DNA from: Gemmatimonadales bacterium
GTDB lineage: Bacteria > Gemmatimonadota > Gemmatimonadetes > Gemmatimonadales > GWC2-71-9
Length of the DNA stretch: 64,000 bases
Reading direction: 5' to 3'
Assembly: GCA_037189525.1 (NCBI GenBank)
Contig: JBBCJC010000001.1
Location: 841,750 to 905,749, forward strand
Shown: piece after piece, positions 26,134 to 63,000 of the stretch
Layout: each line of letters begins with the position of its first letter
Position numbering within the stretch: position 1 is the stretch's first letter
The notes under the pieces: model-generated
Seen by the model: the letters and a program-made list of their open reading frames with translations, nothing else
The model's database searches: none
What the model was told of the DNA's origin: nothing
Position numbers and translations under genes: made by a program

Positions 26134-29004
26134 TCAGACCGCCTGACCTGCCTGGATCCGGCGATACAGCTCGGTCGTTTCATCATCAGGCTCGGTCTCG
26201 AGTTCACGCTCGACCAATGCCGTCAGTTCCTGATACAGCCGCACCGCCTGCGAGCGCGCGCCGCGGCGGGCGTGCGCCGTCATCCGCAGCCGCCAGGCCG
26301 CCTCATGCAACCCATCCCGCTCGAGCAGGCGGAGGCAACTCGCCTCGACCTCCTGATACCGTTCCCGCTGGAGGAGCCACTCGGCGTATCGCAAAGCGCC
26401 GTCGACGAACAATCGTTCGATCCGATCCCGATCTTCGAGCGCCCAATCGCCGACCGACTCCCCTTCGAGGAAGGGACCGCGATAGAGGGCCAGCGCATTC
26501 TCGAGGAGCGCCGGCGCATCGGTTGCGGACCGGCGCGCCGCGGTGAGCGCCGACGACATCTGACGATCGAAGCTCGCCGCATCGAACTCGACATCGAGCG
26601 ACGGCGCCAGCCGATACCGCTCCTCGATACTGACGATCCGATCGGTGCCGCCCAACGCTTTGCGAAGGCGGTGCAAGGTGACATGGAAGGCATTGCGAAG
26701 CTGCGCCGATGACGCCTCGGGCCAGAGCGCCGCACCGACCTGCTCCTTGGTCAAGCCGCGAGGATTGGTGAGCAGCAGCAACAGCAGTTCCCGGGCCCGG
26801 GCAGAGCCCCAGGCCGCCGGGTCGATCGGCTCCCCATGCAACCGGACCTCGAGGCGCCCCAGCGCGTGCACTACGAGCGGCGTGGGCGGCGCAACGGGAG
26901 GCTGCACTTCGGTAAAGACCGGCTCGACGGCAGCCGCCCTGGGCAGCATGTCCGCGGCAACCGCTTGCTGCGCGAGGGCTACGGCGGTTTCCGTCGACAG
27001 CGCCCGCCCCTCGGCCCACAGCGCAGCCAGGCGATCGCCGACGGTGGGCAGGATCGCGGCAACCGTGCGGTCGCGCAGGTCGGTTTCCTTGGGCCACATC
27101 GGATAGACCATGCGCTCACGGCCCGCCTCCGCCGCGCCGAACAGGCGGGCAGCCAACTCGGCGTGGGCCCCGACGAGACAGGCCGCCACCCCCTCGATCC
27201 CCTTGGTAATGCCCCATCCGTCGCTGATGGCCCAATGCAGAGCAAGCGATTTGCGGTAGAGCGGCAGTGCCTCGTCCAGTCGCCCGGCCACAGCCAAGGT
27301 AAGCGCCATACCGCTCAAGCCATGGCCGATGCCGCCCTGATGCCCGGTGTCGGTGGAATAGACGCTCTCGCGCCGGTGCCACTCGAGGGCCTGCTCCAGG
27401 TCATTCCGATGGTCGGCGCAGAGCGCGAGGAAATGACAACCGATGCCGGCCATCACGGTGCGACTGTATTGCCGCGCCATGGGCACCCCGCGCTCGAGGT
27501 CATGCACGGCGGCATCGAACTCGCCCGCGATGGTATAGGCCGCGCCGCGCATGATCAGGATGTAGGCCAGCAGCTCGCGATCTTCATCGATATCATGCGT
27601 GCTGGCGAGCGCTTCGTTCAGATAACCGAATGCCTGGTCCATCTTCGACTGCCACAACGCCAGATGACCAAAGGCTACCTGAGCCCGCACCCGCGTCACC
27701 AGCGACACCGCCGAGGGGCGTTGCAGCAGGACGGCCAGGCGCCAGATCTCCTCCGACGGGCCTCGCGACCACCAGAACCAGTGCAGCGCCCAAACCAGCC
27801 GGAAGGCGTAGCCCGGCCCCTCCTCCGATCGCAGCGACCACTCCGCCACCGCGTGGAAATTGGGCACTTCGGCCAGCAGCCGGTCGACCATTTCGCGACT
27901 GGACGGACCGCCGAAGATGGCCGGCGCCACTTCCTCCGCAATCGACAGGAAGTACTGCGCGTGGCGGCGCCGGAGGAGTTCGCTTTCGCCGGCGGCTTCG
28001 AGGTGTTCCTGCGCGTACTGGCGCACCGTCTCGAGCATCCGATAGCGCGCTTCATTGTCCGCCGACTCGAGCACGACCAGCGACTTGTCGACCAGCCCCG
28101 CCAGGAGGTCCAGGATATCGAACGAACCGAGCGGCGCCAGGCTGCCCACCACTTCCGCCGCGTCGAGCGAAAAGTCCGCCGGGAACACGGCCAGACGCCG
28201 GAGCAGGATCTGCTCCGGTTCGCTCAAGAGCGAGTGACTCCAGTCGAACGCGGCGCGCAGCGTCCGATGTCGCGGCACCGCCGTCCTGCTACCTGCGCTC
28301 AGCAATTTGAGGGCGTTGCCCAGCCGCTCGGCGATCTGCTCGATCGACAGCACCCGGACCCGGGCCGCTGCCAATTCGATGGCGAGCGGAATCCCATCGA
28401 GTCGCCGGCAAATGTCCTCGATGACGGCCCGATGCCGTTCCGCCGGCGTAAAATTCGGCACCACCCCGCGTGCCCGGCTGACGAAGAGCTCGACCGCTTC
28501 CGGCATGGCCAGCGGCGGCACCAGCCAGGCCGTTTCCGCCATCACACCAAGCGCCTCACGGCTGGTGGCGAGAACGACGAGGTTGGGACACTGGGCCAGC
28601 AGCCATTCGGTCATCTGGGCTGCGGCATCGATCAGATGTTCGCAATTGTCGAAGACGATCAGCAGCGACCGGTCGCCGACAGCCGCCGCAATCCGGCCGT
28701 AGGAGGTATCCGGCGTCTGCTCCGACATGCCCAGCGCCTGCACCACCTGCTGGACCATCTGATCGGCCTCGACCACTGCCAGGTCGATCCAGACGATCCC
28801 GTCCTGCCGGCCGGCCAGACGCATGGCGGCCTCCCGGGCGAGCCGGGTCTTCCCGCTGCCACCGGCGCCGGTGAGCGTGAGCAGGCGATTGGTACCGAGC
28901 AGCTCGTCGATGGCATCGAGCTCACGGGCGCGACCGACGAACTGGCTGAGCGGCGTCGGCGGCAGCCGCGGAGCAGGATCGGGAGACGGTGTCGGGATGG
29001 TCAT
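26134..29004 (-). CDS. STAND/NB-ARC ATPase + TPR + C-terminal OmpR-type wHTH + BTAD transcriptional regulator
   Basis: FVGRARE, Walker A GAGGSGKT, Walker B LLIVFDNCEH, LDGIPLAIELAAAR. The C-terminus is SARP-like (ALGRLEV, ALWPE..AQLRNAFHVTLHRLRKAL, ALYRGPFL, ELETEP). Start could also be 29025. Confidence 0.88.
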   Translation of the reverse strand: MTIPTPSPDPAPRLPPTPLSQFVGRARELDAIDELLGTNRLLTLTGAGGSGKTRLAREAAMRLAGRQDGIVWIDLAVVEADQMVQQVVQALGMSEQTPDTSYGRIAAAVGDRSLLIVFDNCEHLIDAAAQMTEWLLAQCPNLVVLATSREALGVMAETAWLVPPLAMPEAVELFVSRARGVVPNFTPAERHRAVIEDICRRLDGIPLAIELAAARVRVLSIEQIAERLGNALKLLSAGSRTAVPRHRTLRAAFDWSHSLLSEPEQILLRRLAVFPADFSLDAAEVVGSLAPLGSFDILDLLAGLVDKSLVVLESADNEARYRMLETVRQYAQEHLEAAGESELLRRRHAQYFLSIAEEVAPAIFGGPSSREMVDRLLAEVPNFHAVAEWSLRSEEGPGYAFRLVWALHWFWWSRGPSEEIWRLAVLLQRPSAVSLVTRVRAQVAFGHLALWQSKMDQAFGYLNEALASTHDIDEDRELLAYILIMRGAAYTIAGEFDAAVHDLERGVPMARQYSRTVMAGIGCHFLALCADHRNDLEQALEWHRRESVYSTDTGHQGGIGHGLSGMALTLAVAGRLDEALPLYRKSLALHWAISDGWGITKGIEGVAACLVGAHAELAARLFGAAEAGRERMVYPMWPKETDLRDRTVAAILPTVGDRLAALWAEGRALSTETAVALAQQAVAADMLPRAAAVEPVFTEVQPPVAPPTPLVVHALGRLEVRLHGEPIDPAAWGSARARELLLLLLTNPRGLTKEQVGAALWPEASSAQLRNAFHVTLHRLRKALGGTDRIVSIEERYRLAPSLDVEFDAASFDRQMSSALTAARRSATDAPALLENALALYRGPFLEGESVGDWALEDRDRIERLFVDGALRYAEWLLQRERYQEVEASCLRLLERDGLHEAAWRLRMTAHARRGARSQAVRLYQELTALVERELETEPDDETTELYRRIQAGQAV

Positions 29005-29047
29005 GACAGTCGAGGCAGATAACATATCGTATGTCTCGGCCGGCCGC

Positions 29048-29569
29048 TCAAACGCCGCCGGTCCGTACGCCGCGCGCGGCTGCCATGACCGGCCCATTCA
29101 GAATCTGGAGCACGTCGTCCACGATGGTCGGGATCGGCCGCTCCTCCCCGATGATCATGGGCGACCCCGGCGCATCCGTCAGCGGCTCGGCGCAGCAGGC
29201 GGCAGCAGGGGTAATCACCACCAGCCGCTCGACCCGGTCCGGATCCAGCATGGCGTATCCGATGGCCGGCGCCGACATCGGGCCATCGGCCAGGACGGAC
29301 ACCCGGTCGAGGCCGAGCCCGTCGAGGAACGGCCCCAACCAGCCTGCGAAATCTTCGGCGCCGGGGGTCACGTCGGGGGCGATCAGGCGGTAACGCTCGG
29401 CCACCGCTTCGATCACGGCATTCCAGAGCGGCAGCGGGTTCGCGGCCTGGGTCAGCAGGATCACCGGCCGGCCCGAGCCCGACCGGACGTATTCGGTAGC
29501 GGTCTTTCCCACGCGGACCACGGCGCGGAAGTTCCCGGTTCGGCTCACACTGTTGTCGTCGGTCATCAT
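29048..29569 (-). CDS. Short degenerate alpha/beta-hydrolase-fold protein
   Basis: EYVRSGSGRPVILL, YRLIAPD, FLDGLGLDRVSVL, DPDRVERLVVI. No HG or GxSxG motif. GGGAG RBS. Confidence 0.7.
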   Translation of the reverse strand: MMTDDNSVSRTGNFRAVVRVGKTATEYVRSGSGRPVILLTQAANPLPLWNAVIEAVAERYRLIAPDVTPGAEDFAGWLGPFLDGLGLDRVSVLADGPMSAPAIGYAMLDPDRVERLVVITPAAACCAEPLTDAPGSPMIIGEERPIPTIVDDVLQILNGPVMAAARGVRTGGV

Positions 29570-29659: not shown

Positions 29660-29739
29660 GCTGTTCAGCACCCAGCTACTGGCGGGGTCGCCGCCCGACC
29701 ACGGTGGCGTTGCGGCAACCATTCCAATACTCTTGAGGG

Positions 29740-29960
29740 ATATTCGTGCTGGTCGCCGGCTCGGCGTGGTCTGAGCCGGCGTGAAAAGGGAACCCGGTGT
29801 GAATCCGGGGCGGCCCCGCCGCTGTGAGGAACGACGAACGGGACAAGTAGCCCACTGCGACAGCGTATCGTTGCGGGAAGGGTGTCCTCAGTAGGATGAC
29901 TTCCGAGCCAGAAGACCTGCCAACGCGCTATTTCCTGTGTCGTCCCTCGGGGGAGGGACA
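29740..29960 (+). ncRNA. Cobalamin riboswitch (class I, AdoCbl type) upstream of metE
   Basis: AAAAGGGAACCCGGTGTGAATCCGGGGCGGCCCCGCCGCTGT...CCACTG...GGGAAG...GAGCCAGAAGACCTGCC (B12 box). L5 CCCCG (29814-18) is complementary to loop CGGGG (29948-52) of a downstream hairpin. Confidence 0.95.
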
Positions 29961-30113
29961 GCGGGCTCCGCGCTCGACGCTCGTCTTCCGACGGTGTTGG
30001 GTCCGACCGGCATGGGCTTCCTGGATTCCGATCCGGAAGCCTTCGTGTTTCCTGCCGGTGGCGCAGCTGCATTCTCCTCCGGGGTGACCATACCCAACCC
30101 GAGAGGACCTGTC

Positions 30114-32420
30114 ATGTCGTCGCACCCTGCTGTCTCCGCATCAAACCTGGGATTTCCGCGCATCGGCGCCCGTCGCGAACTCAAACGGGCTTTGGAATCG
30201 TTCTGGGCCGGAAAAGCGGATGCGGCCAGCCTCCACGCCATTGCGAGCGAGTTGCGCGCCAAGCACTGGCGACTCCAGCACGATGCGGGCGTCACCCCCT
30301 CGTCGAACGATTTCTCGTTCTACGACCAGGTCCTCGACATGGTGATGATCACGGGCGCGGTGCCCGACCGATACCGCGCGCTGGATGGTGACCCGCTCCG
30401 CCAGTACTTCGCCATGGCCCGCGGCGATCAGCGGGACGGCGTCGACCTGCCGGCGATGGAAATGACCAAGTGGTTCGACACCAACTACCACTACATCGTC
30501 CCGGAGTTCGATCAGAACACCTCGTTCCGTCTCGGCTCGGAAAAGCCGGTCGAGGAATACCTCGAGGCCAAGGCGCTGGGCATCGAGACCCGTCCCGTCC
30601 TGCTCGGACCGATCTCGTTTCTGACGCTCGGGAAAATGGCTGACGGCGGCTCGGCCCTTACGCTGCTCGACGGGTTGCTACCGATCTACGAAACGCTGCT
30701 GCGCAGGCTCGCAGCAGCGGGCGCTCGCTGGGTACAGATCGACGAACCCATCCTGGTCCTCGACCTGTCCGAGGCTCATCGAGCCGCGTTCCGCACGGCG
30801 TACGATCGGCTCGCGAAAGTGGGTGACGCACCGCAGGCCGTGCTCACGACCTATTTCGGTGCGCTGGGCGACAATCTCGACCTGGCCACGTCGCTGCCCG
30901 TCGCCGGGCTGCATGTCGATCTGGTCCGCGCTCCGGAGCAACTGGACGCGGTCCTCGCCGCCCTGCCTGCCGACCGGGTCCTGTCGGCCGGTATCATCGA
31001 CGGCCGTAACATCTGGCGCACCGACCTCGACACCGCGCTCGGCACACTGCGGACCATCGCGACCGCGCGCCCGAGATCGGGACTGATCGTGGCCCCGTCG
31101 TGTTCGCTGCTGCACAGCCCGGTCGGACTCGACACGGAAACAGCCCTCGACGCCGAGTTGCGCAGCTGGCTTGCGTTTGCCACCGAAAAGCTCTCCGAAG
31201 TCGAGGCGTTGACACAAGCACTCGGTGCGGGTGGCGAAGCCGCCGCCTCGGCGTTCGCTTCCAGCTCCGCTGCTGTGATCAGCCGACGAGCCTCGACCCG
31301 GATCCATCGAGCCGAAGTCGACGCCCGGCTCGATGCAATCACGGCCGAGTCGACCCGTCGCCAGAGCCCGTATCCGACCCGACGGTCGGCGCAGCGCTCC
31401 ATCGGACTCCCGACCTTTCCGACCACCACGATCGGCTCGTTTCCTCAGACCGCTGCGGTCCGCAACGCGCGGGCAGACCACAAGAAGGGCACGCTCGATA
31501 CGGATGCCTATGACCGTTTTCTGCGAGACGAAATCGAACGAACCGTCCGGATCCAGGAGACGATTGGCCTCGACGTGCTGGTGCACGGGGAGTTCGAGCG
31601 CAACGACATGGTGGAGTACTTCGGCGAGCGGCTCGATGGCTTTGCCTTTACCGCCAACGGATGGGTGCAGAGTTACGGGTCACGGTGTGTCAAACCACCG
31701 ATCATCTATGGCGACGTGGTCCGTCCGGCTCCGATGACGGTCAGCTGGTCGCGGTTTGCGCAAAGCCTCACCGACCGACCGATGAAGGGTATGTTGACCG
31801 GACCAGTCACCATCCTGCAGTGGTCATTCGTCCGAGACGACCAGCCGCGCGACGTGACCTGCCGGCAGATTGCCCTGGCCATCCGGGACGAGGTGGTCGA
31901 TCTCGAGGCGGCCGGCCTCCGGGTCATCCAGATCGATGAGCCTGCCATCCGAGAGGGACTCCCGCTCCGGAAAGCCGACTGGGCGCAGTACCTCGCCTGG
32001 GCCGTCGATGCCTTTCGCATCGCGTCGTCGGGGGTGCGGGACGAGACCCAGATCCACACCCATATGTGCTACTCGGAGTTCAACGATATCGTCGACGCCG
32101 TTGCCTCGATGGATGCCGACGTCGTGTCGATCGAAACCTCACGATCGAAGATGGAACTCCTGGACGCCTTTGCCAGGTTTGCCTATCCCAACGAAATTGG
32201 GCCTGGCGTCTACGACATCCATTCGCCTCGGGTGCCGCCGGAGGCCGAGATGGTTACTCTGCTTCGACGGGCAGCGGAGGTCATTCCCGCCGACCGGCTG
32301 TGGGTCAACCCCGACTGCGGACTCAAGACGCGCGGGTGGCCGGAAGTTGAACGAGCGCTGACTGCGATGGTGGCCGCGGCGCGAACCCTGCGAGCGGAGC
32401 AAGCGGCGGCCAGTAACTAG
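30114..32420 (+). CDS. metE: Cobalamin-independent methionine synthase
   Basis: [67 protein letters not shown]. Confidence 0.97.
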
Positions 32421-32429
32421 GGCGCCGCG

Positions 32430-32693
32430 ATGTCATCCGGACGGGTCGGCGTCGAATATTCTCAGGAGGTTGCTACGAACACGTCGTCGATCGACCCGTC
32501 CCGGTGCCCGCTCTGCGCGGACGACAACGGCTGCGCCATGGCCGGCAGCGACCCGACCGATCCATGCTGGTGCACCAGCGCCAGCATTCCGCCAAGCCTG
32601 CTGGCGCTGGTACCGCCCGAGTTGCAATCGAAGGCGTGTATCTGCAAGACGTGCGTCGAGGCGCATCTGCCCAGTGGGGATGCGCCTCGATGA
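32430..32693 (+). CDS. Cysteine-rich CWC family protein
   Basis: CPLC..N.C...PCWC...ACICKTC pattern, 9 nt after the metE stop. Confidence 0.8.
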   Translation: MSSGRVGVEYSQEVATNTSSIDPSRCPLCADDNGCAMAGSDPTDPCWCTSASIPPSLLALVPPELQSKACICKTCVEAHLPSGDAPR

Positions 32694-32711: not shown

Positions 32712-33605
32712 TCAGCCCATCAGCTGGATGATACTCGAGAAGTCGAGGGTGCCGGAGCCCGCTCGGCTGTGGACGGCGTACAAGTTGCGCGCCAGCGCGC
32801 CAAGCGGCGTCGCGGCATGGGAGGCCCGAGCGGCCTCCTCGGCCAGATCGAGATCTTTCAGCATCAGATCGGTACCGAACCCGCCGCTATAGCCACGCGA
32901 CGCCGGCACATTCTCCATCACGCCGGGCAACGGATTGTAGACCTCCAACGCCCAATTCCGTCCGGAACTCTTGGCCATGATCTCGGACAGCACCTTGGGA
33001 TCGAGTCCGTTAGCCACGCCGAGTGCCAGTGCCTCCGAGGTACCGATCATCAGAATGGCCAGCAGCATGTTGTTGCACAGCTTGGCCGTTTGCCCGGAAC
33101 CCGCGCTGCCGGCGTGGAATACATTCTTACCCATCGCCTGAAAGACGGGCCTGGCGCGTTCGAGGGCCGCTTCGTTGCCGCCCACGATGAAGGTGAGTGT
33201 TCCGGCCGCCGCTCCCCCCGTGCCGCCGGACACCGGCGCATCGAGGAACGCGGTCCCTTTTCGCTCGGCCGCGAGCCCGACCGTGCGCGCGCTGGCCGGC
33301 GCAATCGTGCTGCAATCGAGCAGCAGCACTCGGGCATCGAGCGTTGCGATCAACCCGGAAGACTCCCCGTCACCCAGATATAGGGATTCGACATGGCGAC
33401 TGGCCGGCAACATCGAGATAACGACCTCCGCTCCCTCCACCGCAGCCGTCAGACTATCGGCCAAGGGAACACCGAGTTCCGTCGCGAGTCGGCGCGCATC
33501 ATCGGAGAGGTCGAAGCCGGACACATGATATCCGGTCTTGACGAGGTTTGCGGCCATGGGTCGGCCCATGTTCCCCAGCCCGATGAAGGCAATGCGTTGT
33601 GACAT
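32712..33605 (-). CDS. mmsB: 3-hydroxyisobutyrate dehydrogenase
   Basis: IAFIGLGNMGRPMA, DAPVSGG, AKLCNNMLL, SSGRNWALEVYNPLPG. Confidence 0.93.
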   Translation of the reverse strand: MSQRIAFIGLGNMGRPMAANLVKTGYHVSGFDLSDDARRLATELGVPLADSLTAAVEGAEVVISMLPASRHVESLYLGDGESSGLIATLDARVLLLDCSTIAPASARTVGLAAERKGTAFLDAPVSGGTGGAAAGTLTFIVGGNEAALERARPVFQAMGKNVFHAGSAGSGQTAKLCNNMLLAILMIGTSEALALGVANGLDPKVLSEIMAKSSGRNWALEVYNPLPGVMENVPASRGYSGGFGTDLMLKDLDLAEEAARASHAATPLGALARNLYAVHSRAGSGTLDFSSIIQLMG

Positions 33606-33623
33606 GAGAAGCTCCTCGATCGC

Positions 33624-34736
33624 TTACGCCAGGTCCGCCAGCGGATGCGCCCCGGTATAGCGCATCACGAAGTGCTCATCGATCCACGCCGGAGTGACCT
33701 CCTCGAGCGTCGCCGGCGTCCACGACGGTTTCCGGTCGCGATCGATCAGCAGCGCGCGAATGCCCTCGGCGAAGTCGGGGTGGGCGGCACACCCAAGGGA
33801 CACGTCATATTCGAGTCGGAACACATCGCCTAACGACAGGTACGTCACCCGACGGCGCAGTTCATACGCCAATGCCGCGGAGGTCGGTGATCCCCGGCGA
33901 AAGGCGGTCACGGCGCCGGCCAACCATGGATCGGCGTCTGCGGCCTGCTGTAGACGGGAGACAATCTCAGCCAGCGTATCGTCGATACCAACGATCTCGT
34001 TGATCTGATCGAAATGGGTCCGAAGTGCGGACTCTGGTACGGTGGCGGCACGGTACCGCGTCAGGATAGCCGACAGAGCGCTTCGATCCGTGGCGGCGTG
34101 GCCTGACCAGCGGGCAGCCTCAATGGCCGATAGAACCTCGGCCCGCGCCGCATCGGGGACGACCACGTCCGCCAGCCCCGCAAAGAGCGCATCCGCGGCA
34201 TTCAGGGGCACCCCGGTCAGCGCCAGGAACAGGCCGATCCCGCCCGGCATCCTCCGCAGGAACCAGCTGCCCCCGACATCGGGGTACAGCCCGACCGAAA
34301 TCTCCGGCATCGCGAGCCGGGTCGCTTCGGTGGCTACCCGATGCGACGCGCCGGCCATGAGACCGATCCCGCCCCCCATTACGATGCCATGCCCCCAGCA
34401 CAGGAAGGGCTTGGGATAGGTGTGAATCCGGTAGTCGAGGCGATACTCTCGGGCAAAGAAATCTTCCGCGTAGGCATTCCGACCACTGCCCGCCTGGCGC
34501 ATCGAATGGTAGAGCTCATGGAGGTCACCTCCGGCGCAGAGAGCTTTCGCGCCTGCTCCCTGCAGGATCACTCCGACGACGGATGGGTTACGCGCCCACC
34601 GCTCGAGCGCGGGGTCGATCAGACGGATCATCGCGAGCGACAGCGCGTTGAGCGTCGCCTCGCTGTTCAGTGTGACCAAGCCGAAGCGATGGCCTGAGGC
34701 GGTCTCGAGCTCATCGACCAGAACGACGTCCGCCAT
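33624..34736 (-). CDS. 3-hydroxyisobutyryl-CoA hydrolase-like crotonase
   Basis: LNALSLAMI, ALCAGGDL, FFAREYRLDY, GIVMGGGIGL, AMPEISVGLYPDVG, DFAEGIRALLIDRD. Confidence 0.9.
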   Translation of the reverse strand: MADVVLVDELETASGHRFGLVTLNSEATLNALSLAMIRLIDPALERWARNPSVVGVILQGAGAKALCAGGDLHELYHSMRQAGSGRNAYAEDFFAREYRLDYRIHTYPKPFLCWGHGIVMGGGIGLMAGASHRVATEATRLAMPEISVGLYPDVGGSWFLRRMPGGIGLFLALTGVPLNAADALFAGLADVVVPDAARAEVLSAIEAARWSGHAATDRSALSAILTRYRAATVPESALRTHFDQINEIVGIDDTLAEIVSRLQQAADADPWLAGAVTAFRRGSPTSAALAYELRRRVTYLSLGDVFRLEYDVSLGCAAHPDFAEGIRALLIDRDRKPSWTPATLEEVTPAWIDEHFVMRYTGAHPLADLA

Positions 34737-34737
34737 A

Positions 34738-35526
34738 TCAGCGATTCTTCCATTCGGGCTTGCGCTTGGCGAGGAACGCGCCAACGCCCTCCTGCTGATC
34801 CTCGGTATCGAAGAGGTCGACGAACGCCTCGCGCTCACTTGGTAAGTTGTGCCGCGGCGGCAGTCCGCGCGCGCCTTGAATCAGCTGCTTACAGGCCGCA
34901 ACGCTGCTCGGGCTCTGCCCCGCAACACCTTCCGCCAGCGCCAGCGCGCGCGAAACCGACTCGCCGCGGGGCACCACCTCCTCGACCAGCCCGATGTCGA
35001 GCGCCTTCGATGCCGGCACCTTCTCTCCGGCCAGGATCATCCGTTTGGCCCACCCTTCCCCGACGAGCCAGGGCAGCCATTGCGTTCCGCCGGCACACGG
35101 CAGAAGCCCGACGCCAGCTTCGGGCAACGCCACCACGGCATGCTCTTCCGCGATCCGGATGTCGCAGGCAAGAGCGCACTCGAGGCCGCCACCCATCGCA
35201 TAGCCGTTGATCGCGGCGATCGAGACGCCACGGAACCCTGCCAGCGCTTCGAACGCCTCACCAAAGCGACGCGCCATGGCGCGTGCGATCGCCTTATCAC
35301 CCGAGGCAAACAGCTTGAGATCGGCGCCGGCCGAGAAGAATTTTTCGCCCTGGCCAGTCAGGATCAGTGAGTACACCGCGCGGTTCGCATTCAGGTCAGC
35401 GACCAGCGCCGTCAGGGCTCGAAGACTGTCTTCGGTCCAGGTATTGGCCGGTGGGTTGGCCAAGTGTACCAGGGCGGTATGTCCCCGCAATTCCAGCTGC
35501 AGGCCATGGTAGGTCGGGTTGCTCAT
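34738..35526 (-). CDS. Enoyl-CoA hydratase
   Basis: FFSAGADL, GYAMGGGLECALACD, LPEAGVGLLPCAGGTQ. Confidence 0.92.
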   Translation of the reverse strand: MSNPTYHGLQLELRGHTALVHLANPPANTWTEDSLRALTALVADLNANRAVYSLILTGQGEKFFSAGADLKLFASGDKAIARAMARRFGEAFEALAGFRGVSIAAINGYAMGGGLECALACDIRIAEEHAVVALPEAGVGLLPCAGGTQWLPWLVGEGWAKRMILAGEKVPASKALDIGLVEEVVPRGESVSRALALAEGVAGQSPSSVAACKQLIQGARGLPPRHNLPSEREAFVDLFDTEDQQEGVGAFLAKRKPEWKNR

Positions 35527-36683
35527 CGAATAGCCTCGATCGCTTCGGGTTCCAGCATTTTTCGGGAGACGATCACGCGCATGATTTCGTTGGTACCTTC
35601 GAGGATCTGATGGACGCGCGCGTCGCGCAGGTACCGCTCGAGCGGGTACTCCTTGGTGTAGCCGTACCCCCCGAACAGCTGGAGCGCCTCGTTACAGACT
35701 CGGAAACCGATGTCCGTGGCGTGCTGCTTGGCCATGGCGCAGTAGGTGGTGGCGTTACTCTCGCCCGCATCCAGCTTGCTCGCAGCGAGACGGACCATTT
35801 GCCGCGCAGACACCAGCTCGGTCGCCATATCGGCCAGCTTGAACTGCAGGGCTTGGAAATCAGCCAGGCGACGCCCGAACTGACGCCGCTCGAGCATGTA
35901 GCGCTGGGCGGCATTGAGCGCACCTTGCGCCGCACCGACCGAGCAGGTGGCAATGTTGATGCGGCCCCCGTCCAACCCCTTCATCGCAATCCTGAATCCT
36001 TCGCCTTCGGCGCCGAGCCGATACGCGGCCGGCACGCGAACGTTGTCAAAGGAGATCCCGCGAGTCGGCTGACTGTTCCAACCCATCTTTTCTTCCTTAC
36101 GACCGAAGATGACACCGGCCGCGTCCGCCGGGACCAGGAAGGCCGTGATGCCCTTCGGCCCGTCAACGCCGGTCCTCGCCATCACGACCAGCGCATCGGT
36201 CACACCGCCTCCCGACACGAACGCCTTCGATCCGGACAGGACATAGTCGTCCCCATCCTGAACGGCGGTCGTCAATAGCGAGGCGGCGTCGGAGCCCGAT
36301 CCCGGCTCGGTCAGGCAGTATGACGCCAGCTTCTCACCGCTGCTCAAGGCCGGGAACCATTCCGATGCGACCCGCTCGCCACCCCAGGTGCCGATCATCC
36401 AGGTCGACATGTTGTGGATCGTGATATACGCCGTGGTCGACGGGCAGGCCGCGGCCAGTTCCTCGAAGATGATCGCCGCGTCGAGCCGAGTCAGACCCAT
36501 GCCGCCGAGCGCCTCGCTGATGTAGAGGCCGCAGATGCCCAGTTCGCCGGCGGCGCGGATCACCTCGCGCGGGAAGATCTCCTTCGCATCCCATTCCGCC
36601 GCATGAGGCGCGAGTTGCTCGGCCGCAAACTGACGCGCCATGTCCTGAAAGGCCCGCTGGTCCTCCGACAATTCGAAGTTCAT
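35523..36683 (-). CDS. Isobutyryl-CoA dehydrogenase-like acyl-CoA dehydrogenase
   Basis: YCLTEPGSGSDA, KMGWNSQPT, GLDGGRINIA, RVHQILEGTNEIMR. Confidence 0.92.
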   Translation of the reverse strand: MNFELSEDQRAFQDMARQFAAEQLAPHAAEWDAKEIFPREVIRAAGELGICGLYISEALGGMGLTRLDAAIIFEELAAACPSTTAYITIHNMSTWMIGTWGGERVASEWFPALSSGEKLASYCLTEPGSGSDAASLLTTAVQDGDDYVLSGSKAFVSGGGVTDALVVMARTGVDGPKGITAFLVPADAAGVIFGRKEEKMGWNSQPTRGISFDNVRVPAAYRLGAEGEGFRIAMKGLDGGRINIATCSVGAAQGALNAAQRYMLERRQFGRRLADFQALQFKLADMATELVSARQMVRLAASKLDAGESNATTYCAMAKQHATDIGFRVCNEALQLFGGYGYTKEYPLERYLRDARVHQILEGTNEIMRVIVSRKMLEPEAIEAIR

Positions 36684-36691
36684 CGGGATAC

Positions 36692-38218
36692 CTACCGGAG
36701 GCTAATCGTGCTGTTGATCGGCGCAGCAACTGACTCCGATTCGAACCAGCGCGCCGTCACAGTCTTGGTCTGGGTATAGAAAAGGACCACCTGACGCCCG
36801 TAGGGGCCGAGATCGCCCAGCTTGGATGCGCGGGAGCCTGTAAACGAGAACAACGGCACCGGCACGGGAATCGGCACGTTGATGCCGACCTGGCCGACAT
36901 CGATTTCTTCCTGGAAGGTGCGCGCCGCAGCGCCCGACGACGTAAAAAGCCCGGTCCCGTTGCCGTTCGGATTCCGGTTGACGAGTTCGATCGCATCCCG
37001 AAGCGTGTCGGCCGTCATGAGACACAGCACAGGGCCGAAGATCTCCTCATCGTAGATCGTCATACCCGGCTGGACACCGGAGAAGATGGTCGGACCAACG
37101 AAGTTGCCTTGTTCAAAGCCGGGAACCGTTACATCGCGACCATCGAGTTCGAGGACGGCTCCTTCGGTGGCCCCCTTTTCGATCAGAGTCCGAACCCGGT
37201 CACGCGCCGCGCAGGAAATGACCGGACCGACATCGGTGCCTGCTTCCGTACCGGCATTGACCTTGAGCGTCTTGGCTTTGGCGACGATATCCGAAATCCA
37301 GGTTCGCGCCTCACCGACCAGCACGACCACCGAAGCGGCCATACAACGCTGCCCCGCTGCACCGAATCCGGCACCGACGATAGCGTTGAGCGTCTGCTCC
37401 TTGGGCGCATCCGGAAGCACCACGACGTGATTCTTGGCGCCCATCATGCACTGGACCCGTTTGCCGCTCTGTGAGGCGCGATGATAGACGTGAGTCCCCA
37501 CTTTGGTCGAGCCGACGAACGAGACGGCCTTGATATCGGGGTGATCACAGATGGCGTTGACCACATCGGCAGCGCCATGGACCACGTTGAGGACGCCTTT
37601 CGGCACCCCGGCTTCGAGGGCCAGCTCCACCAGGCGCATCGTCACCATCGGATCCTGCTCCGACGGCTTCAACACAAAGGTGTTGCCGGTCGCGATGGCC
37701 ATCGGGAACATCCAGAGCGGAATCATGGCCGGAAAGTTGAAGGGCGTGATCCCGGCGCAGACGCCTAACGGCTGCAGGATGGTATAGGTATCGACCCCGC
37801 CCGCAACGTTGGTAGCCAGTTCGCCCATCTGCAGATAGCCGATGTTGGCGGCATGCTCCACTACCTCGAGCCCACGGAACACGTCCCCTTCGGCGTCGGA
37901 CAGCGTCTTACCCTGTTCGGCCGTGAGCAGCGCAGCCAGTTCCTGCTGATGCGCCCGAATCAGCTGCTGATATTTGAGAAAGATTCGCGCCCGGGCGCCG
38001 ATCGGGGTCCGCCGCCAGGTGACGAACGCGGCTTTGGCCGCTGCCACCGCGGCATCGACCTCCTGCGGGGTGGCCATCGGCACACGAGCCAGGACTTCCT
38101 GTGTGGCCGGGTTGACGACATCACGCCACTTCGTCGTCTTCGAATCGACGAAGGCTCCATCGATCAGCAACTTGACGGACACGACACTCTCGACGGCGGA
38201 GCGCGGTTGAACGGGCAT
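36692..38218 (-). CDS. mmsA: CoA-acylating (methyl)malonate-semialdehyde dehydrogenase
   Basis: [51 protein letters not shown] before the ATG at 38218. Confidence 0.95.
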
Positions 38219-38250
38219 ATCGGTCTCCTTCGACCTGGAGGAGCGCGCCG

Positions 38251-39135
38251 TCATGACGACGCACCGAAAAGAGCATCGAGCTTTCGCTCGTAGCTGTGGT
38301 AATCGATCCGATCGTACAATTCCTCGCGGGTCTGCATCAGAGTGACGACCGATCGTTGCGAGCCCTCGCGTCGAATCGCCTCGTATACCTGCTCCGCTGC
38401 CCGGTTGGCGGCGCGAAACGCCGAGAGCGGATACAGGACGATGCCGACCCCGGCGTCGGTGAGTTCCGATAATGTGAAGAGCGGGGTGCTGCCAAACTCC
38501 GTAATATTGGCCAGTACAGGCACCGGCAACGCCGCGGCGAATCGCCGATACTCGTCGAGGGTGCGTACCGCTTCGGGAAAAATGAAATCTGCGCCCGCAG
38601 CTGCGTATGCTGCGGCGCGATCGACCGTGGCATCCAGCCCCTCGGTCGCCAACGCGTCGGTACGAGCAGCCACGACGAACGCCGGATCGGTTCTGGCATC
38701 GACTGCGGCCTTGATCCGATCGACCATTTCATCTCGCGGTACGATCGACTTGTTGGGGCGGTGACCGCATCGCTTGGCACCGGCCTGATCCTCCAGATGC
38801 ACGCCGGCGGCACCTGCCCGCGTCAGATCCCGAACCGTGCGAGCGACATTGAAGGCCGATGGACCGAACCCGGTGTCGCCATCGACGAGGAGCGGCAGAT
38901 CGCAAACCCCGGTAATCCGCCGCACGTCGACCAGCACATCCTCCAACGAGGAGATGCCCAGATCGGGAAGGCCGAGCGAGCCGGCTGCGACCCCGCCACC
39001 GGACAGATAGACCGCGCGAAATCCCGCGCGCTTGACCAGCAGCGCATGATTGGCGTTGATCGCGCCGACCAGTTGAAGCGGGTGCTCACTCTTGAGCGCT
39101 TGTCGAAACCGTTGTCCGGCAGAAGTCGATGCCAT
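38251..39135 (-). CDS. prpB: 2-methylisocitrate lyase
   Basis: [38 protein letters not shown]. Confidence 0.95.
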
Positions 39136-39137
39136 GA

Positions 39138-40589
39138 TCAGATCACGTAGAGGTCGATGTAGTCGGGCACGGGCATCGCCTGCAGGCGATCCGAATCCAG
39201 CGAAACCGCAAGAATGGCCTGCTGCTGCTTGGCCGGGAATCGGCGCGCCAGGTTGGTGCGGAACTTGGCTTCCAGGAGCGGGATGCCGTCCGCTCGGCGA
39301 CGACGATGCCCGATCGGGTATTCGACCACGACTTCGTCGAGGCGCGTCCCGTCGTTCAGCTCGACCGTGACGCCGTTCGCAATCGACCGCTTTTCCGGAT
39401 CATGGTAGTCGGCCGTAAAGGCCGGGTCTTCGACGCAGTCGATCCGATCGCGCAGCGCATCGATACGAGGATCGGCTGCGACCTCATCCTCATAGTCCGC
39501 GGCCGTGAGCCGGCCGAAAAGCAGCGGCACTGCCACCATGTATTGGATGCAGTGATCGCGATCAGCCGGATTGTTGAGCGGCCCCTTCTTGTCGATGATC
39601 CGGATGCACGCTTCATGGGTACGGATCGTGACGCGAGTAATGTCGGCCGCGCTCTTGCCCTGATCCGTCAGCCGTCGGTGCAGCGTCATGGCGGCTTCGA
39701 CGGCCGTCTGGCTGTGGAACTCCGCGGGAAAACTGATCTTGAAGAGGACGTTCTCCATCACATACGTCCCGAAGGAGCGCTGAAAGGCAAACGGCTTGCC
39801 TTTGAAAAGGACGTCATAGAATCCCCAGGTCGGCGCCGTCAGGACCGACGGGTATCCCATCTCACCCTTTTGCGTCATCAATGCCAGTCGAACGGCCCGG
39901 CTGGTCGCATCACCCGCAGCCCATGACTTTCGGCTGCCGGTGTTCGGCGCGTGACGGTAGGTCCGCATGCTCTGCCCGTCGACCCACGCTTGCGATACGG
40001 CATCGATGATCTCATCGCGTGACAAGCCGAGCAGATTACCGACCACGGCCATACTGGCGACTTTGACGAGGACGACATGGTCGAGACCGACCCGGTTGAA
40101 CGAGTTCTCCAGCGCGAGCACACCCTGGATCTCGTGCGCCTTGATCATGGCCAGGAGCACATCCCGCATCAGCAGAGGAGGCCGACCCGCTGCCACGGCC
40201 GTGCGCGAGAGCCAGTCGGCCACCGCGAGGATACCTCCGAGATTGTCCGACGGATGACCCCACTCGGCCGCGAGCCAGGTATCGTTGAAATCGAGCCATC
40301 GGATCATCGTGCCGATATTGAACGCTGCCTGAACGGGATCCAGTTGAAACTGGGTACCCGGCACCCGCGCCCCGTTCGGTACGACCGTGCCCGGTACGAT
40401 CGGACCGAGCAGCTTGGTACAGGCAGGATACGACAGCGCCTCCAGCCCGCAGCCGAGTGTGTCGATCAGGCAGTGGCGCGCCGTCTCGAGCGCCAGGTCG
40501 GACACGGCCGATCGGTCGACGGCATAGTCGGCGATGGCAACCAGGACATCGTCCGGCGCGGGTCGGATATTGGAAATGTGACTGCTCAT
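39138..40589 (-). CDS. prpD: 2-methylcitrate dehydratase
   Basis: [47 protein letters not shown]. Confidence 0.96.
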
Positions 40590-40628
40590 GTATGCTCGTC
40601 GGCGCGAGGCGCCGGATCGGGTAAACGC

Positions 40629-41822
40629 CTAACGCGCATCCAGCGGCACATAGGGCCGTTCATCCGGCCCGATGTAGTTCGCGCTGGGGCGAATGATCTT
40701 GCCATCGAGCCGCTGTTCGATGACGTGCGCCGACCACCCGGTCGTCCGCGCAATGACGAACAGGGGTGTAAACATCGCCGTCGGAACGCCCATCAGGTGG
40801 TAGGACACGGCGGAGAACCAGTCCAGGTTAGGAAACATCCGCTTCGCATCCCACATCACCTGCTCGATCCGCGCGGCAATCTCGAACATCCTGGTCGAGC
40901 CGGCCTCTTCCGACAGCCGCCGCGCCACGTCCTTGATCACGACGTTGCGAGGGTCCGACACCGTGTACACCGGATGGCCGAACCCGATCACGACCTGCTT
41001 GGCTTCGAGCAGGCGGCGAATGTCGGCCTCGGCCTGATCCGGATCGTCATACCGCTGCTGGATATCGAAGGCGACCTCGTTAGCGCCGCCATGCTTGGGA
41101 CCTCTCAACGCACCAATCGCACCCGTAATCGACGAGTAGAGATCCGACCCCGTGCCGGCAATGACTCGCCCGGCAAAAGTCGACGCATTGAACTCGTGCT
41201 CGGCATAGAGCACCAGCGAGGTGTGCATGGCTTCGACCCAGGAGCGCCGAGGTGTACGACCATGCAACAGATGCAGGAAATGCCCGCCGATCGAGTCGTC
41301 GTCGGTCTCGACCTCGATCCGTCGGCCATGGGTGGCATAGTGATACCAGTAGAGCAGAATCGAACTGAGTGACGCCAGCAGCCGATCGGCAATGTCGCGC
41401 GCACCGGCCAGCGGATGATCGTCCTTTTCCGGCAGCACACAGCCGAGTGCCGACACGCCGGTGCGCATGACATCCATTGGGTGAGTGGCCGCCGGAAGGC
41501 GTTCGAGCACATTCCGCACGTCGATCGGCAGGCCCCGCAACGATGCCAGCTTGGTCTTGTATGCTGCCAGGTCGGTTCGATTGGGGAGACTACCGTGAAT
41601 CAGCAGGTGGGCCACTTCCTCGAACTCGCACTGCGCCGCAAGATCGAGAATATCATAGCCGCGATAGTGGAGGTCGTTCCCCGATCGACCGACCGTACAC
41701 AACGCGGTGTTGCCGGCAGTGACGCCCGACAGCGCAACCGATTTCTTTGGCTTGGGACCTGAGGTCGAACCTGCGGAACCCCCGACCTCAGTCGGGGCGA
41801 CGTTCGTTTCGGGAGAGATCAC
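40629..41822 (-). CDS. prpC: 2-methylcitrate synthase
   Basis: [56 protein letters not shown] start after GGAGG. Confidence 0.95.
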
Positions 41823-41904
41823 GCGTCCTCCGGCCGTAACGCATCCTACGGTCGGGAACGGTGGTCAGTATGCTCCGGGCGGCAACGAGGAGAATACCCG
41901 ACGA

Positions 41905-42058
41905 CCGCATCCTCTGACGCGAAGGACGCTGTCACTGCGATATGGCTCGTGGGCGGGCATTCGGGCTTGGCAGGAGTGCCTTACCGTTGCGCGACAGCGC
42001 CGGACTTTCACCGGCTTCCCCCGTATTGAGCCGACCACGACAGTCGGCCCCACGAACG
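41905..42058 (-). ncRNA. Compact cobalamin riboswitch (class II-like, lacking the P8-P12 extension) upstream of prpC
   Basis: Minus strand TTCGTGGG-GCCGAC..GTCGGC-TCAATACGGGGGAAGCCGGTGAAAGTCCGGCGCTGTCGCGCAACGGTAA-GGCA.CTCC.TGCC-AAGCCCGAATGCCCGCCCACGAG. P1 closes TTCGTGGG/CCCACGAG. A downstream hairpin GCGTCCT/AGGATGC has loop CGCG complementary to L5 CGCG. Confidence 0.85.
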
Positions 42059-42215
42059 TGCAACTTCCAAATCGAACGTAAGAGACGAACCCCCGGGGAT
42101 CAAGGCTGTCGGTTCCGGCAGTTTCGCTCCCAGCGCAACCTTTCCGACCGAACCGCTCCCGAGGTCCACCGCCCACATATCGAAACCATGCGACGATTGA
42201 CCGGAGACTCGCCGC

Positions 42216-42689
42216 TCAGCGCGCGGCGGCCGCCGGCTCGCGATGACTTCCCGAGGGACGGCGATGCGCACCGGACGTCCGAACCACCTCGTCTCCTGCC
42301 AGACGTGGTCGCTCGCGAGCCGCGACCGGCAACCGGCGACTCGCTCCGACTACCCGCCGCGCGATCTGGACACTGAGCAGGATCACGCCGAGCAGCAGAT
42401 ACCCGCCGACGAACACGGCCCAATGCAGCACATTCCCGTTACCAACCGGCTGCCCGTTGACCTGAATCGCCGAGGTGCGGGCGACATCCGGACCAAGCAG
42501 AGCGGCCAGGACCCACCCGGTGGTCCATAAGCTGGCCACGATGCCCACCGCAATCGCGGCCTGCACCGTCGCCGACCTGGCCGCCCGCCGATCGCCGCGA
42601 TTGCGGATCAGATTCCGCAACGGCAGCAGCACGGCCGCCGCGAGATAGAAGAGCCCGCCGACGCCGGCCCCAGGAATTCCCACCGTCAT
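42216..42689 (-). CDS. Small membrane protein (about 3 TM) coupled to the GT2 gene
   Basis: Starts 2 nt after the GT2 stop. Three hydrophobic segments. Confidence 0.7.
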   Translation of the reverse strand: MTVGIPGAGVGGLFYLAAAVLLPLRNLIRNRGDRRAARSATVQAAIAVGIVASLWTTGWVLAALLGPDVARTSAIQVNGQPVGNGNVLHWAVFVGGYLLLGVILLSVQIARRVVGASRRLPVAARERPRLAGDEVVRTSGAHRRPSGSHREPAAAAR

Positions 42690-60076: not shown

Positions 60077-63000
60077 ATTTCATATCCCCGCACATGCTGG
60101 GAACGTATCTTCGGCACTCAGAAAGCCGAGCAGGTGCACGGTTTATCCCGCGTGCACGCGGGGAACGTGGGACCGAGATCGGCGTCCGGATTATGTACGT
60201 TGGCACATCCCCGCATGCGCGGGGAAACGTGGCCGCCCGGACGCGGTTGCAGAAGTCGATGACGGTTCATCCCCGCATGCGCGGGGAACGCTCCACCCCT
60301 TCAACGATGTCGGCAACCTCAGCCGGTTCATCCCCGCATGCGCGGGGAACGCTCGATCAGCGCGCCGCGGTTCAGGCCGTCGGACGGTTCATCCCCGCAT
60401 GCGCGGGGAACGCCCCCCCACCATCGCTGCGACTGGGCGAGAAACCGGTTCATCCCCGCATGCGCGGGGAACGTGTCCCCTGCTCCCAGTCCGTCAGGGC
60501 CTGGAGCGGTTCATCCCCGCATGCGCGGGGAACGCTACTCCACCACGCACCCACCACGCACCTACAACGGTTCATCCCCGCATGCGCTGGGAACGCTTCC
60601 CGACGAGCCCGAGTTCGCGACGGGCTCACGGTTCATCCCCCCATGCGCGGGGAACGCATCGTGCGGGCGATTGCCGCCCAGCTCGCCTACGGTTCATCCC
60701 CGCATGCGCGGGGAACGCTCGCGACCTCATCGCCGCCCGTGACCGGCGGCAGGTTCATCCCCGCATGCGCGGGGAACGCAGTCACGCCACCGGCGGCAGA
60801 GTGGTGCGCAGCGGTTCATCCCCGCATGCGCGGGGAACGCTATCATGGTTTCAGGTTGTTGTGTTGCAATGACGGTTCATCCCCGCATGCGCGGGGAACG
60901 CCGTGGTCCGGCCCAGACGGCCAATGTTGTAGACGGTTCATCCCCGCATGCGCGGGGAACGCGTCTAGTCGCCCTGATCGACTGGGTTGGCGGACGGTTC
61001 ATCCCCGCATGCGCGGGGAACGCAGCCGCGCCAGGACGGAATCGCGGGCGTGTTCCGGTTCATCCCCGCATGCGCGGGGAACGCCCCCCTAGTTCGGTAC
61101 GTCCGCCGTGGTCCGGCGGTTCATCCCCGCATGCGCGGGGAACGCGGCAACGTGGACCCCTAGGTCCATGCCGTATCCGGTTCATCCCCGCATGCGCGGG
61201 GAACGCGAATACGAACCGGAAAGGAACCGTATTGTCGGCGGTTCATCCCCGCATGCGCGGGGAACGCCGAATTCTCGACGCACTGGCGTGGCTTGAGTCC
61301 AGGTTCATCCCCGCATGCGCGGGGACGCTGCATACGCTGATGCTCCCGATCGGCGGCCTGCGGTTCATCCCCGCATGCGCGGGGAACGCGCCCGACTGGC
61401 GTACTGCGGATCTAGATCAGCCCGGTTCATCCCCGCATGCGCGGGGAACGCCAGCCGCAGGGGGCGAGCCTCAAGCTCATCCCCGGTTCATCCCCGCATG
61501 CGCGGGGAACGCGAATCGCACGCCACGCTGCGGGACTACGACACCGGTTCATCCCCGCATGCGCGGGGAACGCCCAGGCGTTGTAGCGGATGCCACCGGC
61601 TGCCCCGGTTCATCCCCGCATGCGCGGGGAACGCCGGCTCGGCCGCGAGTGCGCACCGATCACGGCAGGTTCATCCCCGCATGCGCGGGGAACGCTCCGA
61701 CGCGCAACGCACTGCCGATGCCGAGACCGGTTCATCCCCGCATGCGCGGGGAACGCCTTCATGATCCGGACCCGAGCTGGCCGGTCGGGGGTTCATCCCC
61801 GCATGCGCGGGGAACGCACACTTCGCCAGCCAATGCGCCGCCGAGAATACGGTTCATCCCCGCATGCGCGGGGAACGCGATGGTTTTCGATCCCGCCGGG
61901 GCTGCCACGCCGGTTCATCCCCGCATGCGCGGGGAACGCGGCTGGCGGCGGAACTCAAGGCGATTGACGACCGGTTCATCCCCGCATGCGCGGGGAACGC
62001 TTCTCAAGTCCTGCTCTTAGCTCTTGTGAGGGCGGTTCATCCCCGCATGCGCGGGGAACGCCGGCGGGTGTCTACCGTGCGTTGGAGTTTTGTCGGTTCA
62101 TCCCCGCATGCGCGGGGAACGCACCCGTGCCGCCAGGTCAGCCGCTTCCGCCGCCGGTTCATCCCCGCATGCGCGGGGAACGCGGGGTCAGTCGTGACGC
62201 ACAGCGGTGTGTCGTCGGTTCATCCCCGCATGCGCGGGGAACGCTGTTTGGGACGGGCTATCCGGTAGACGTATCCCGGTTCATCCCCGCATGCGCGGGG
62301 AACGCCTGCCGTCCGATTTGCACAGCCACGACGGGTACGGTTCATCCCCGCATGCGCGGGGAACGCGGCAAATCGCCCACGTCAATAACCAAAGGAAACG
62401 GTTCATCCCCGCATGCGCGGGGAACGCAAGACAATGCTCCGCTTCTACCGGTTTCCAGACGGTTCATCCCCGCATGCGCGGGGAACGCACGAGGGAGCAC
62501 ACCAGCAAGTGGAGCCCGGTCGGTTCATCCCCGCATGCGCGGGGAACGCTGGTAAGCGGGCGGGCTGGTGCACGTGTGCGTCGGTTCATCCCCGCATGCG
62601 CGGGGAACGCCGGCAGCAAGCCGATCCGGCCCTCGATCCGCCCGGTTCATCCCCGCATGCGCGGGGAACGCCAGCTCCTCGAGGCGCCGGCCCTCCCGGC
62701 CGACGGTTCATCCCCGCATGCGCGGGGAACGCGCGCGGTTTCGACGCCGAGCAGGGCCGTGTTGAGGTTCATCCCCGCATGCGCGGGGAACGCTTGTCTT
62801 CCGGCTCCGATGCGGCGGCCCGTCCCGGTTCATCCCCGCATGCGCGGGGAACGCGTGGCGTCCGCCGAAATCGAGGCGTGGGAGTGCGGTTCATCCCCGC
62901 ATGCGCGGGGAACGCACTGCCCCCCGTGGCAATGTGCGGGCTGATCGAGGTTCATCCCCGCATGCGCGGGGAACGCGCGACGGATCAGCCTGCTGATTCC

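Follow-up and report, generated by a model that had tools for sequence, protein, structure and literature searches.

The 64,000-nt stretch of Gemmatimonadales DNA analysed here (the window) carries a cobalamin riboswitch in the leader of prpC, the first gene of a minus-strand operon ordered prpC-prpD-prpB-mmsA-ACAD-ECH-HIBCH-mmsB. We think it fairly likely that this element is a translational OFF switch that makes the eight-gene, B12-free route conditional on B12 shortage. We see about an even chance for the fuller reading, in which the switch gates a complete valine-to-pyruvate route bypassing two adenosylcobalamin (AdoCbl)-dependent mutases, and in which an nrdAB-type leader was recently grafted onto acquired genes and its platform re-tuned.

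An Rfam scan over the whole window placed an RF00174 (clan CL00101) match at 41935-42068 on the minus strand, ending 113 nt 5′ of the prpC GUG and scoring 48.6 bits (E 4.2e-9) against a gathering cut-off of 31.5 bits. This score bears out the original prediction of a B12 riboswitch in the prpC leader, whose proposed span, 41905-42058, runs from the start of P1 (42057) to the end of P13 (41907); a second cobalamin riboswitch in the window, that of metE (29733-29938, plus strand), had been missed. Helix names follow the numbering of PMC7367189. The prpC aptamer has a P3-P6 four-way junction and an L5-L13 kissing loop, in which L5 GUCGCG and L13 CGCGUC pair at five of six positions. The metE and btuB switches of the same genome have GCCCCG with CGGGGG, relative to which, as to the common CCCCG/CGGGG form, the prpC switch has one G-C pair swapped on both sides. 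The three 3′ positions of L5 are functionally important in the Priestia megaterium metE switch (PMC10327014), and all three corresponding positions pair in the prpC switch. We conclude that the element is a real cobalamin riboswitch.

Cbl-I switches combine a P2 module with a long P6 extension, and Cbl-II switches have no P2 arm (short J1/3) and a small P6 extension (PMC7367189). The prpC switch falls outside Cbl-I, as P2 is present but 7 nt replace the model's 64 and there is no long P6 extension, and outside Cbl-II (IIa/IIb), as the small P6 hairpin is accompanied by a P2 arm. In architecture only, this combination matches the yvrC-like hybrid plan, and the ligand form therefore cannot be read off the prpC aptamer.

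The original prediction calls for transcripts that begin upstream of the aptamer, and a promoter-like site lies just 5′ of it, ending 7 nt 5′ of the RF00174 match with a predicted start near 42068. The pattern TTG, 17 nt, TAnnnT precedes three of the four cobalamin switches in the genome (prpC, nrdAB and btuB), against a genome background of 1e-4 per base. A strict promoter and terminator scan of 41700-42400 returned no promoter and no intrinsic terminator. Given the absence of a terminator, control is predicted to act at prpC translation.

The switch sits in the 5′ leader together with a predicted expression platform. The 3′ strand of P13 (AGGAUGCG) recurs at 41847, within a hairpin that hides the prpC Shine-Dalgarno (SD) sequence GGAGG (41831-27, 4 nt 5′ of the start codon) and the GUG at 41822, the first start codon of its frame. 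Pairing of the P13 5′ side with this second copy is predicted to abolish both P13 and the SD-hiding hairpin. When P13 is held, the cost of opening the SD and start rises from 4.8 to 15.8 kcal/mol, a coupling of 11.0 kcal/mol that was reached by none of 600 shuffles of the intervening sequence (mean -2.4, maximum 9.6), with P13 and the SD window fixed before shuffling. Sliding the opened window along the leader, we found that coupling peaks at the SD in all four settings, at 5.3-11.0 kcal/mol depending on the 3′ end. The anti-P13 helix has a probability of 1.00 at transcript ends 41840-41826, 0.32 at 41820 and 0.85 at 41810. The prpC switch is probably functional, with ligand binding and the direction of the switch as predictions. 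A second candidate for the ON state, in which the aptamer core (42020-09) would pair with the anti-SD strand, was rejected: 33% of shuffles equalled it, and a joint test gave 119/3000.

All eight open reading frames (ORFs) of the operon are intact and share one strand, with junctions from 5′ to 3′ of 39, 2, -4, 8, -4, 1 and 18 nt. All are below 40 nt, with two overlaps, as the original prediction of eight tightly packed, co-oriented genes had it; with the SD-supported mmsA start at 38218, the prpB-mmsA junction becomes 32 nt instead of -4. NCBIfam cut-offs are passed by seven of the eight genes, under the names given before. The eighth, ACAD, passes no NCBIfam equivalog cut-off; its runner-up PDB match (E 1.1e-95) lies 44 orders of magnitude behind human ACAD8 (1rx0), which we take to be isobutyryl-CoA dehydrogenase. 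By homology, and with predicted substrates, the operon thus holds the complete valine (isobutyryl-CoA) oxidation set: the dehydrogenase, the hydratase, 3-hydroxyisobutyryl-CoA hydrolase (HIBCH), 3-hydroxyisobutyrate dehydrogenase (HIBADH) and methylmalonate-semialdehyde dehydrogenase (MMSDH). A 2-methylcitrate cycle of the PrpD type is also encoded, by PrpC, PrpD and PrpB in the operon and an aconitase elsewhere in the genome. Where acnB had been named as a check, we found a 924-aa aconitase (G000 C3:245565) that is AcnA-like rather than AcnB, with predicted methylaconitate activity. The HIBCH and PrpD of the operon are the sole matches in the genome. GC content at third codon positions is 0.69-0.81 across the operon, not unusual against a genome median of 0.79, and gives no compositional sign of very recent transfer. 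The genes 5′ of the leader encode a 157-aa protein without a family match and a GT2 glycosyltransferase.

The original prediction also stressed that no PrpR or MmsR gene is adjacent. No regulator gene flanks the leader, and for PrpR the statement can be widened: the 98%-complete genome (G000) gave no PrpR_N (PF06506) match, with a positive E. coli control and with other regulator types not searched. For MmsR it stands for the leader flanks, as no genome-wide search was made. The locus does not have the make-up of a PrpR-regulated (enteric-type) prp operon.

The genome context fits a backup role. Its four cobalamin switches head a BtuB-like receptor gene (below cut-off), metE, class Ia nrdAB and prpC, so that each heads an uptake gene or a B12-free backup. 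MetH and NrdJ are encoded above cut-off. The B12-dependent propionate route on which the original prediction hinged is present as a Tyr/Arg-type mutase, a B12-binding subunit, MeaB, an epimerase and genes resembling propionyl-CoA carboxylase (PCC); carboxyltransferases are present, one of them beside a biotin carboxylase. There is no CobQ over cut-off in the genome, and B12 is therefore probably scavenged. Two B12 mutase large subunits are encoded, at C5:200479 and C3:654074. In an alignment to 1req/5req, the Tyr89/Arg207 sites of methylmalonyl-CoA mutase are occupied by Tyr and Arg in the C5 mutase and by Phe and Gln, presumably the mark of an isobutyryl-CoA mutase, in the C3 mutase, whose gene lies between meaB and that of a B12-binding subunit. 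Judged from these residues, the C5 mutase appears to be methylmalonyl-type and the C3 mutase isobutyryl-type. The presence of the latter would explain the mms block, as the operon would then bypass both mutases. The earlier proposal, that RNA-level B12 sensing switches propionyl-CoA catabolism, is supported by all tests that could be run, yet it covers prpCDB only, the five mms genes being a valine route.

Several observations concern the other switches. The metE unit converges on the 3′ end of the operon and is a separate unit with the same backup logic. An 87-aa Cys_rich_CWC protein (PF14375) is encoded between metE and mmsB (32430-32693, plus strand), starting 9 nt past metE, and may share control by the metE switch. 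At C2:1414437-1415449 and C5:1189427-1189700, a second metE, 75% identical in amino acids to the window copy, and a second nrdB, 76% identical in nucleotides to the C2 copy, are both cut by contig ends and lack their 5′ parts; more backups and switches may lie in sequence that was not assembled. At the btuB switch (G000 C1:461434-465201), a CbiX-family gene lies 5′, and btuB and a gene for a diphthamide-synthase-like ATPase (PF01902) lie 3′.

Taken together, these features suggest the following mechanism. With B12, isobutyryl-CoA from valine would go through the isobutyryl-CoA-type mutase, and propionyl-CoA through PCC, epimerase and methylmalonyl-CoA mutase. The ligand would stabilise the L5-L13 kiss, P13 would hold, and the downstream hairpin would bury the prpC SD and GUG, with repression spreading to genes 2-8 by polarity or decay, a spread suggested by the tight gene packing. 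Without B12, the P13 5′ side would pair with the second partner copy (41847-36) and free the SD. ACAD, ECH, HIBCH, MmsB and MmsA would then convert isobutyryl-CoA to propionyl-CoA, and PrpC, PrpD, aconitase and PrpB would convert propionyl-CoA to pyruvate and succinate.

Table 1. Features of the prpC operon, its leader and the neighbouring metE unit (window positions).
Feature	Position	Strand	Basis or remark
Promoter-like site	42075..42103	-	TTGATC 42103-42098, 17 nt, TACGTT 42080-42075
Cobalamin aptamer	41945..42057	-	RF00174 48.6 bits; covariation with G230
Aptamer P1	42057-49/41953-45	-	
Aptamer P2 hairpin	42048-30	-	7-bp arm, covarying
Aptamer P4	42015-41999	-	
Aptamer P5/L5	41998-89	-	
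Aptamer P6	41986-84/41964-62	-	4-bp hairpin extension 41980-69, no long extension
P13/L13, L5 kissing partner	41907..41929	-	
Middle platform hairpin	41864..41902	-	present in both predicted states
SD/GUG-hiding hairpin	41820..41863	-	segment 41847-36 alternatively pairs P13 5′ side (41935-23)
prpC, 2-methylcitrate synthase	40629..41822	-	NF009006 703.9 bits > 550
prpD, 2-methylcitrate dehydratase	39138..40589	-	TIGR02330 840.9 > 458
prpB, methylisocitrate lyase	38251..39135	-	TIGR02317 417.2 > 354.4
mmsA, CoA-acylating methylmalonate-semialdehyde dehydrogenase	36692..38254, likely start 38218	-	TIGR01722 739.4 > 448.5; SD before 38218
ACAD, acyl-CoA dehydrogenase, ACAD8 type	35523..36683	-	best PDB match human ACAD8 1rx0, E 1.6e-139
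ECH, enoyl-CoA hydratase	34738..35526	-	NF006566 436.2 > 286
HIBCH, 3-hydroxyisobutyryl-CoA hydrolase	33624..34736	-	NF004127 342.9 > 274; PDB 3bpt E 5.6e-63
mmsB, 3-hydroxyisobutyrate dehydrogenase	32712..33605	-	TIGR01692 410.6 > 291.6
Second cobalamin riboswitch and metE	29733..32420 (switch 29733-29938, long type)	+	RF00174 117.8 bits; TIGR01371 1103.3 > 929.95

Relatives appear to rely on mutases, as the mutase motifs are frequent and the operon's enzymes are rare among them. The Phe-type motif occurs in 89 of 120 genomes of the family and the Tyr-type in 56 of 60 (exact patterns, lower bounds); this HIBCH was found in none of 120 and this PrpC in one of 400. Cobalamin switches occur in 145 of 150 family genomes, mostly one each. 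Among 400 further genomes of the phylum PrpD was matched in one, and among 21 of the genus in none. The sole other genome with a PrpC/PrpD match, G191, has prpC-prpD without a switch, and G230, discussed below, has no PrpD match at 1e-120. Several of these tallies (mutase motifs, HIBCH and cobalamin switches, and the 21-nt pattern below) include the unpublished genomes G035 and/or G218, although none of our claims depends on either one alone. Among the matches listed, the closest PrpC proteins are 72-80% identical and nearly all proteobacterial; together with the rarity of PrpC in the family, this makes the operon genes look horizontally acquired. In a PrpC tree from a quick search, G000 has a long branch and falls with G191, an Acidobacteriaceae and Steroidobacteraceae in a group that the tree does not resolve, and it points to no donor.

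We compared 81 other prpC loci, including the best 80 of at least 600 matches. The original prediction had looked to prpC leaders in relatives for further cases; none emerged, as a core covariance model that recovered four of four positive controls placed a switch at none of the 81 loci, up to 10 kb away. A regex scan, with Rfam on eight loci, likewise gave no other lineage with a switch-prpC link. The gene order of the operon recurs at none of the 81 loci, and mms genes lie within 10 kb of prpC only at L102 and L070. At L102, from an Acidobacteriaceae, mmsA-ACAD-mmsB and prpB-prpC-prpD lie together in a single cluster that is ordered differently and lacks a switch. In metagenomes, a pattern of aptamer core, 200-260 nt and PrpC motif, which would miss longer switches and prpB-first operons, gave six hits, none of them prpC. 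Viral contigs gave no matches, and plasmids gave short aptamer pieces only. The switch-prpC link is thus confined to one small clade, with no independent origin found. We know of no cultured strain of this clade.

The leader itself has a telling relative. Among 300 further genomes of the phylum, five matched a 21-nt pattern; two of these matches are riboswitches. One, in G230 (L149; same order, other family), is 83% identical to the prpC leader over 152 nt; it heads class Ia ribonucleotide reductase genes (nrdAB), whereas the prpC switch heads an eight-gene operon. The two share the -35 box, the aptamer core, P13 and the three-hairpin platform, and across P1, P2 and P13, 9 of 24 pairs differ (four on both sides, four on one side and one terminal non-pair). 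The G230 platform has a coupling of 7.9 kcal/mol, calculated without a shuffle control. The prpC platform 3′ of P13 has diverged from that of G230, yet is fitted to the prpC start. Among 101 relatives of G230 the leader homologue occurs in one, G230 itself. The other riboswitch, in G055, precedes an ORF that by eye is reductase-like. These comparisons place the switch subtype on reductase (nrdAB) leaders elsewhere, from which it was probably recruited here; as copies are so few, that recruitment ran in this direction and followed the arrival of the genes is an inference. The -35 box of the nrdAB promoter in G230 is overlapped by a palindrome (TTGAC-N5-GTCAA), possibly a protein site, that is not seen in the prpC copy.

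Independent DNA also contains the switch-operon junction. A run that may be the source of the assembly contains every sampled word of the sequence. Of 13 sequencing runs with matches, we compared four, from four studies (X2, X5, X9 and X11). A 2003-nt contig from X9 covers 40695-42147 (138 differences, 11 gaps) and 42250-42689, carrying prpC and the leader at ~90% identity and the upstream gene at 83%, and another X9 contig has prpD at 85%. The recurrence of the junction in this ~90%-identical relative argues against an assembly artefact. A contig from X2 covers 41607-42420 at 95%, with the leader and 215 nt of prpC. A second X2 contig (record 11) departs at 42193 and perhaps represents a strain without the element. 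X5 and X11 have no listed piece across the junction, and parts without cover prove nothing.

Several of these results weigh against a B12-gated eight-gene route. At equilibrium on the full leader, opening the SD costs 5-12 kcal/mol even without ligand, so that the ON state would need kinetics or ribosome binding, and the SD-to-start spacing is merely 4 nt. As no intrinsic terminator was found and mmsA and mmsB each have a strong SD, translational control at prpC need not extend to the distal genes of the set 2-8. The C3 mutase, with its Phe and Gln, is closest in the PDB to a 2-hydroxyisobutyryl-CoA mutase, which has Ile there. The remaining ~6.1 kb of the X2 contig lies off the stretch compared, and the prpC of this strain may be disrupted or substituted. 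The link's absence from the other prpC loci and from the metagenome hits also counts here.

The distal genes frame the first alternative, in which the switch gates prpC or prpCDB only and mmsA-mmsB use an internal promoter or their own SDs regardless of B12. A translational mechanism with no terminator would allow this, as would the mmsA and mmsB SDs, and prp and mms genes are usually separate, as the two exceptions among the compared loci illustrate. We nonetheless hold it to be unlikely, since every gap is below 40 nt, with two overlaps, and gating of the mms genes would make sense as well in a cell with an isobutyryl-type mutase.

Alternatively, the mms genes could serve mainly as a β-oxidation-like propionate shunt as in Caenorhabditis elegans, running from propionyl-CoA through acrylyl-CoA, 3-hydroxypropionate and malonate semialdehyde to acetyl-CoA. 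The cell would then have two B12-free propionate routes with no tie to the second mutase. The identities of the enzymes make this quite unlikely: the ACAD is ACAD8-like, mmsB is a HIBADH equivalog rather than a transhydrogenase, and the HIBCH of the operon is the only one in the genome. A second propionate route in the same operon would also be redundant, although such a shunt is compatible with B12 gating of all eight genes.

It strikes us as improbable that the operon inserted within or behind an nrdAB gene whose leader survives as a relic, with an accidental propionate link or a decaying switch. The only close homologue found heads nrdAB, the link is limited to one small clade and one relative's contig leaves prpC early, all of which speak for such a relic. 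Against it, the platform fits the prpC start despite its divergence from that of G230, the helix changes are compensatory, the junction persists in the X9 relative, and the target is exactly a B12-free alternative. Finally, an activating corrinoid switch exists (PMC10327014) and thermodynamic models are uncertain for GC-rich RNA, but an activating switch, or one that works by transcription (Rho) instead of ribosome access, is scarcely credible here, since in all four settings the SD is costlier to open when P13 is held, and activation would make no metabolic sense.

Other features of the window and of related loci lie apart from this argument. A CRISPR array (60084-64000; ~61 copies, 61-nt spacing), whose repeat we take to resemble type I-E, runs off the contig end and resumes at the start of C13. 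A 987-aa regulator-like protein (26134-29097, minus strand) begins with a STAND/NB-ARC ATPase, followed by TPRs and, at the C terminus, a BTAD domain, presumably the reverse of the usual AfsR domain order. Elsewhere, cobalamin switches precede a DUF1559/prepilin-like ORF (L131, G151:C183:9907-10136) and a LOG-family-like ORF (L134, G093:C51:2688-2806), both judged by eye from the translation, and a methyltransferase-like ORF (L125, G438:C22:69153-69358).

That B12 riboswitches shut off individual backup enzymes is known; if the favoured reading of the prpC leader is true, a whole pathway is silenced here, giving direct cofactor sensing for carbon catabolism and adding prp and mms genes to the cobalamin regulon. 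The valine oxidation route would be the B12-free counterpart of isobutyryl-CoA mutase, a pair for genome surveys of B12 dependence. If the unit was recently assembled, regulon growth has been caught in the act, with other members of the lineage B12-dependent for both steps, and the G000/G230 pair allows aptamer relocation and platform refitting to be compared. The finding is limited to one small clade.

Our search of the open-access PMC and bioRxiv literature turned up no riboswitch ahead of prp or mms genes, though earlier cases may be present in subscription papers, in the tables of RegPrecise and RiboD or in the PMC9600662 supplements. The accessible portions of PMC2700814, PMC9600662, PMC2847961 and bioRxiv 2024.04.28.591522 make no mention of such a link. 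In Mycobacterium tuberculosis, prpR-prpDC-Rv1132 and metE form a B12-repressed cluster in which PrpR activates (PMC10924821, PMC4428469, PMC12713380). As here, methylcitrate genes are clustered with metE and a parallel methylmalonyl route exists (PMC10924821); there, however, the switches lie at metE and PPE2 and prpDC is controlled by PrpR, whereas here the RNA is in the prpC leader, no PrpR of the E. coli type was found, and the operon also takes in valine genes. The C. elegans shunt (acdh-1, ech-6, hach-1, hphd-1 as well as alh-8; PMC4951191) likewise sets a whole B12-free pathway against the mutase route, and four of its five enzyme families occur in the mms block. That shunt, by contrast, is transcriptional and set off by propionate build-up rather than B12 itself, and mmsB is not HPHD-1. 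The atypical Bacillus subtilis yvrC switch (PMC7367189) shares the P2 arm and small P6 hairpin and differs in sequence, L5/L13 letters and platform.

The closest precedent in logic is the set of 13 isozyme genes under cobalamin control described from 535 sites in 197 genomes, including metE, nrdAB/nrdDG/nrdEF, metF, ardX-frdX and achX (PMC3766115); prpB, prpC, prpD, mmsA and methylcitrate are absent from its accessible text and eight supplements. The prpC switch is a real and probably functional member of a known riboswitch class, on a kind of target absent from the sources searched, namely a whole B12-free route that would bypass one, and probably two, AdoCbl mutases. Like those isozymes, it combines the same RNA class with the same logic, and the metE and nrdAB cases occur in this genome too; unlike them, its target is an eight-gene catabolic operon.

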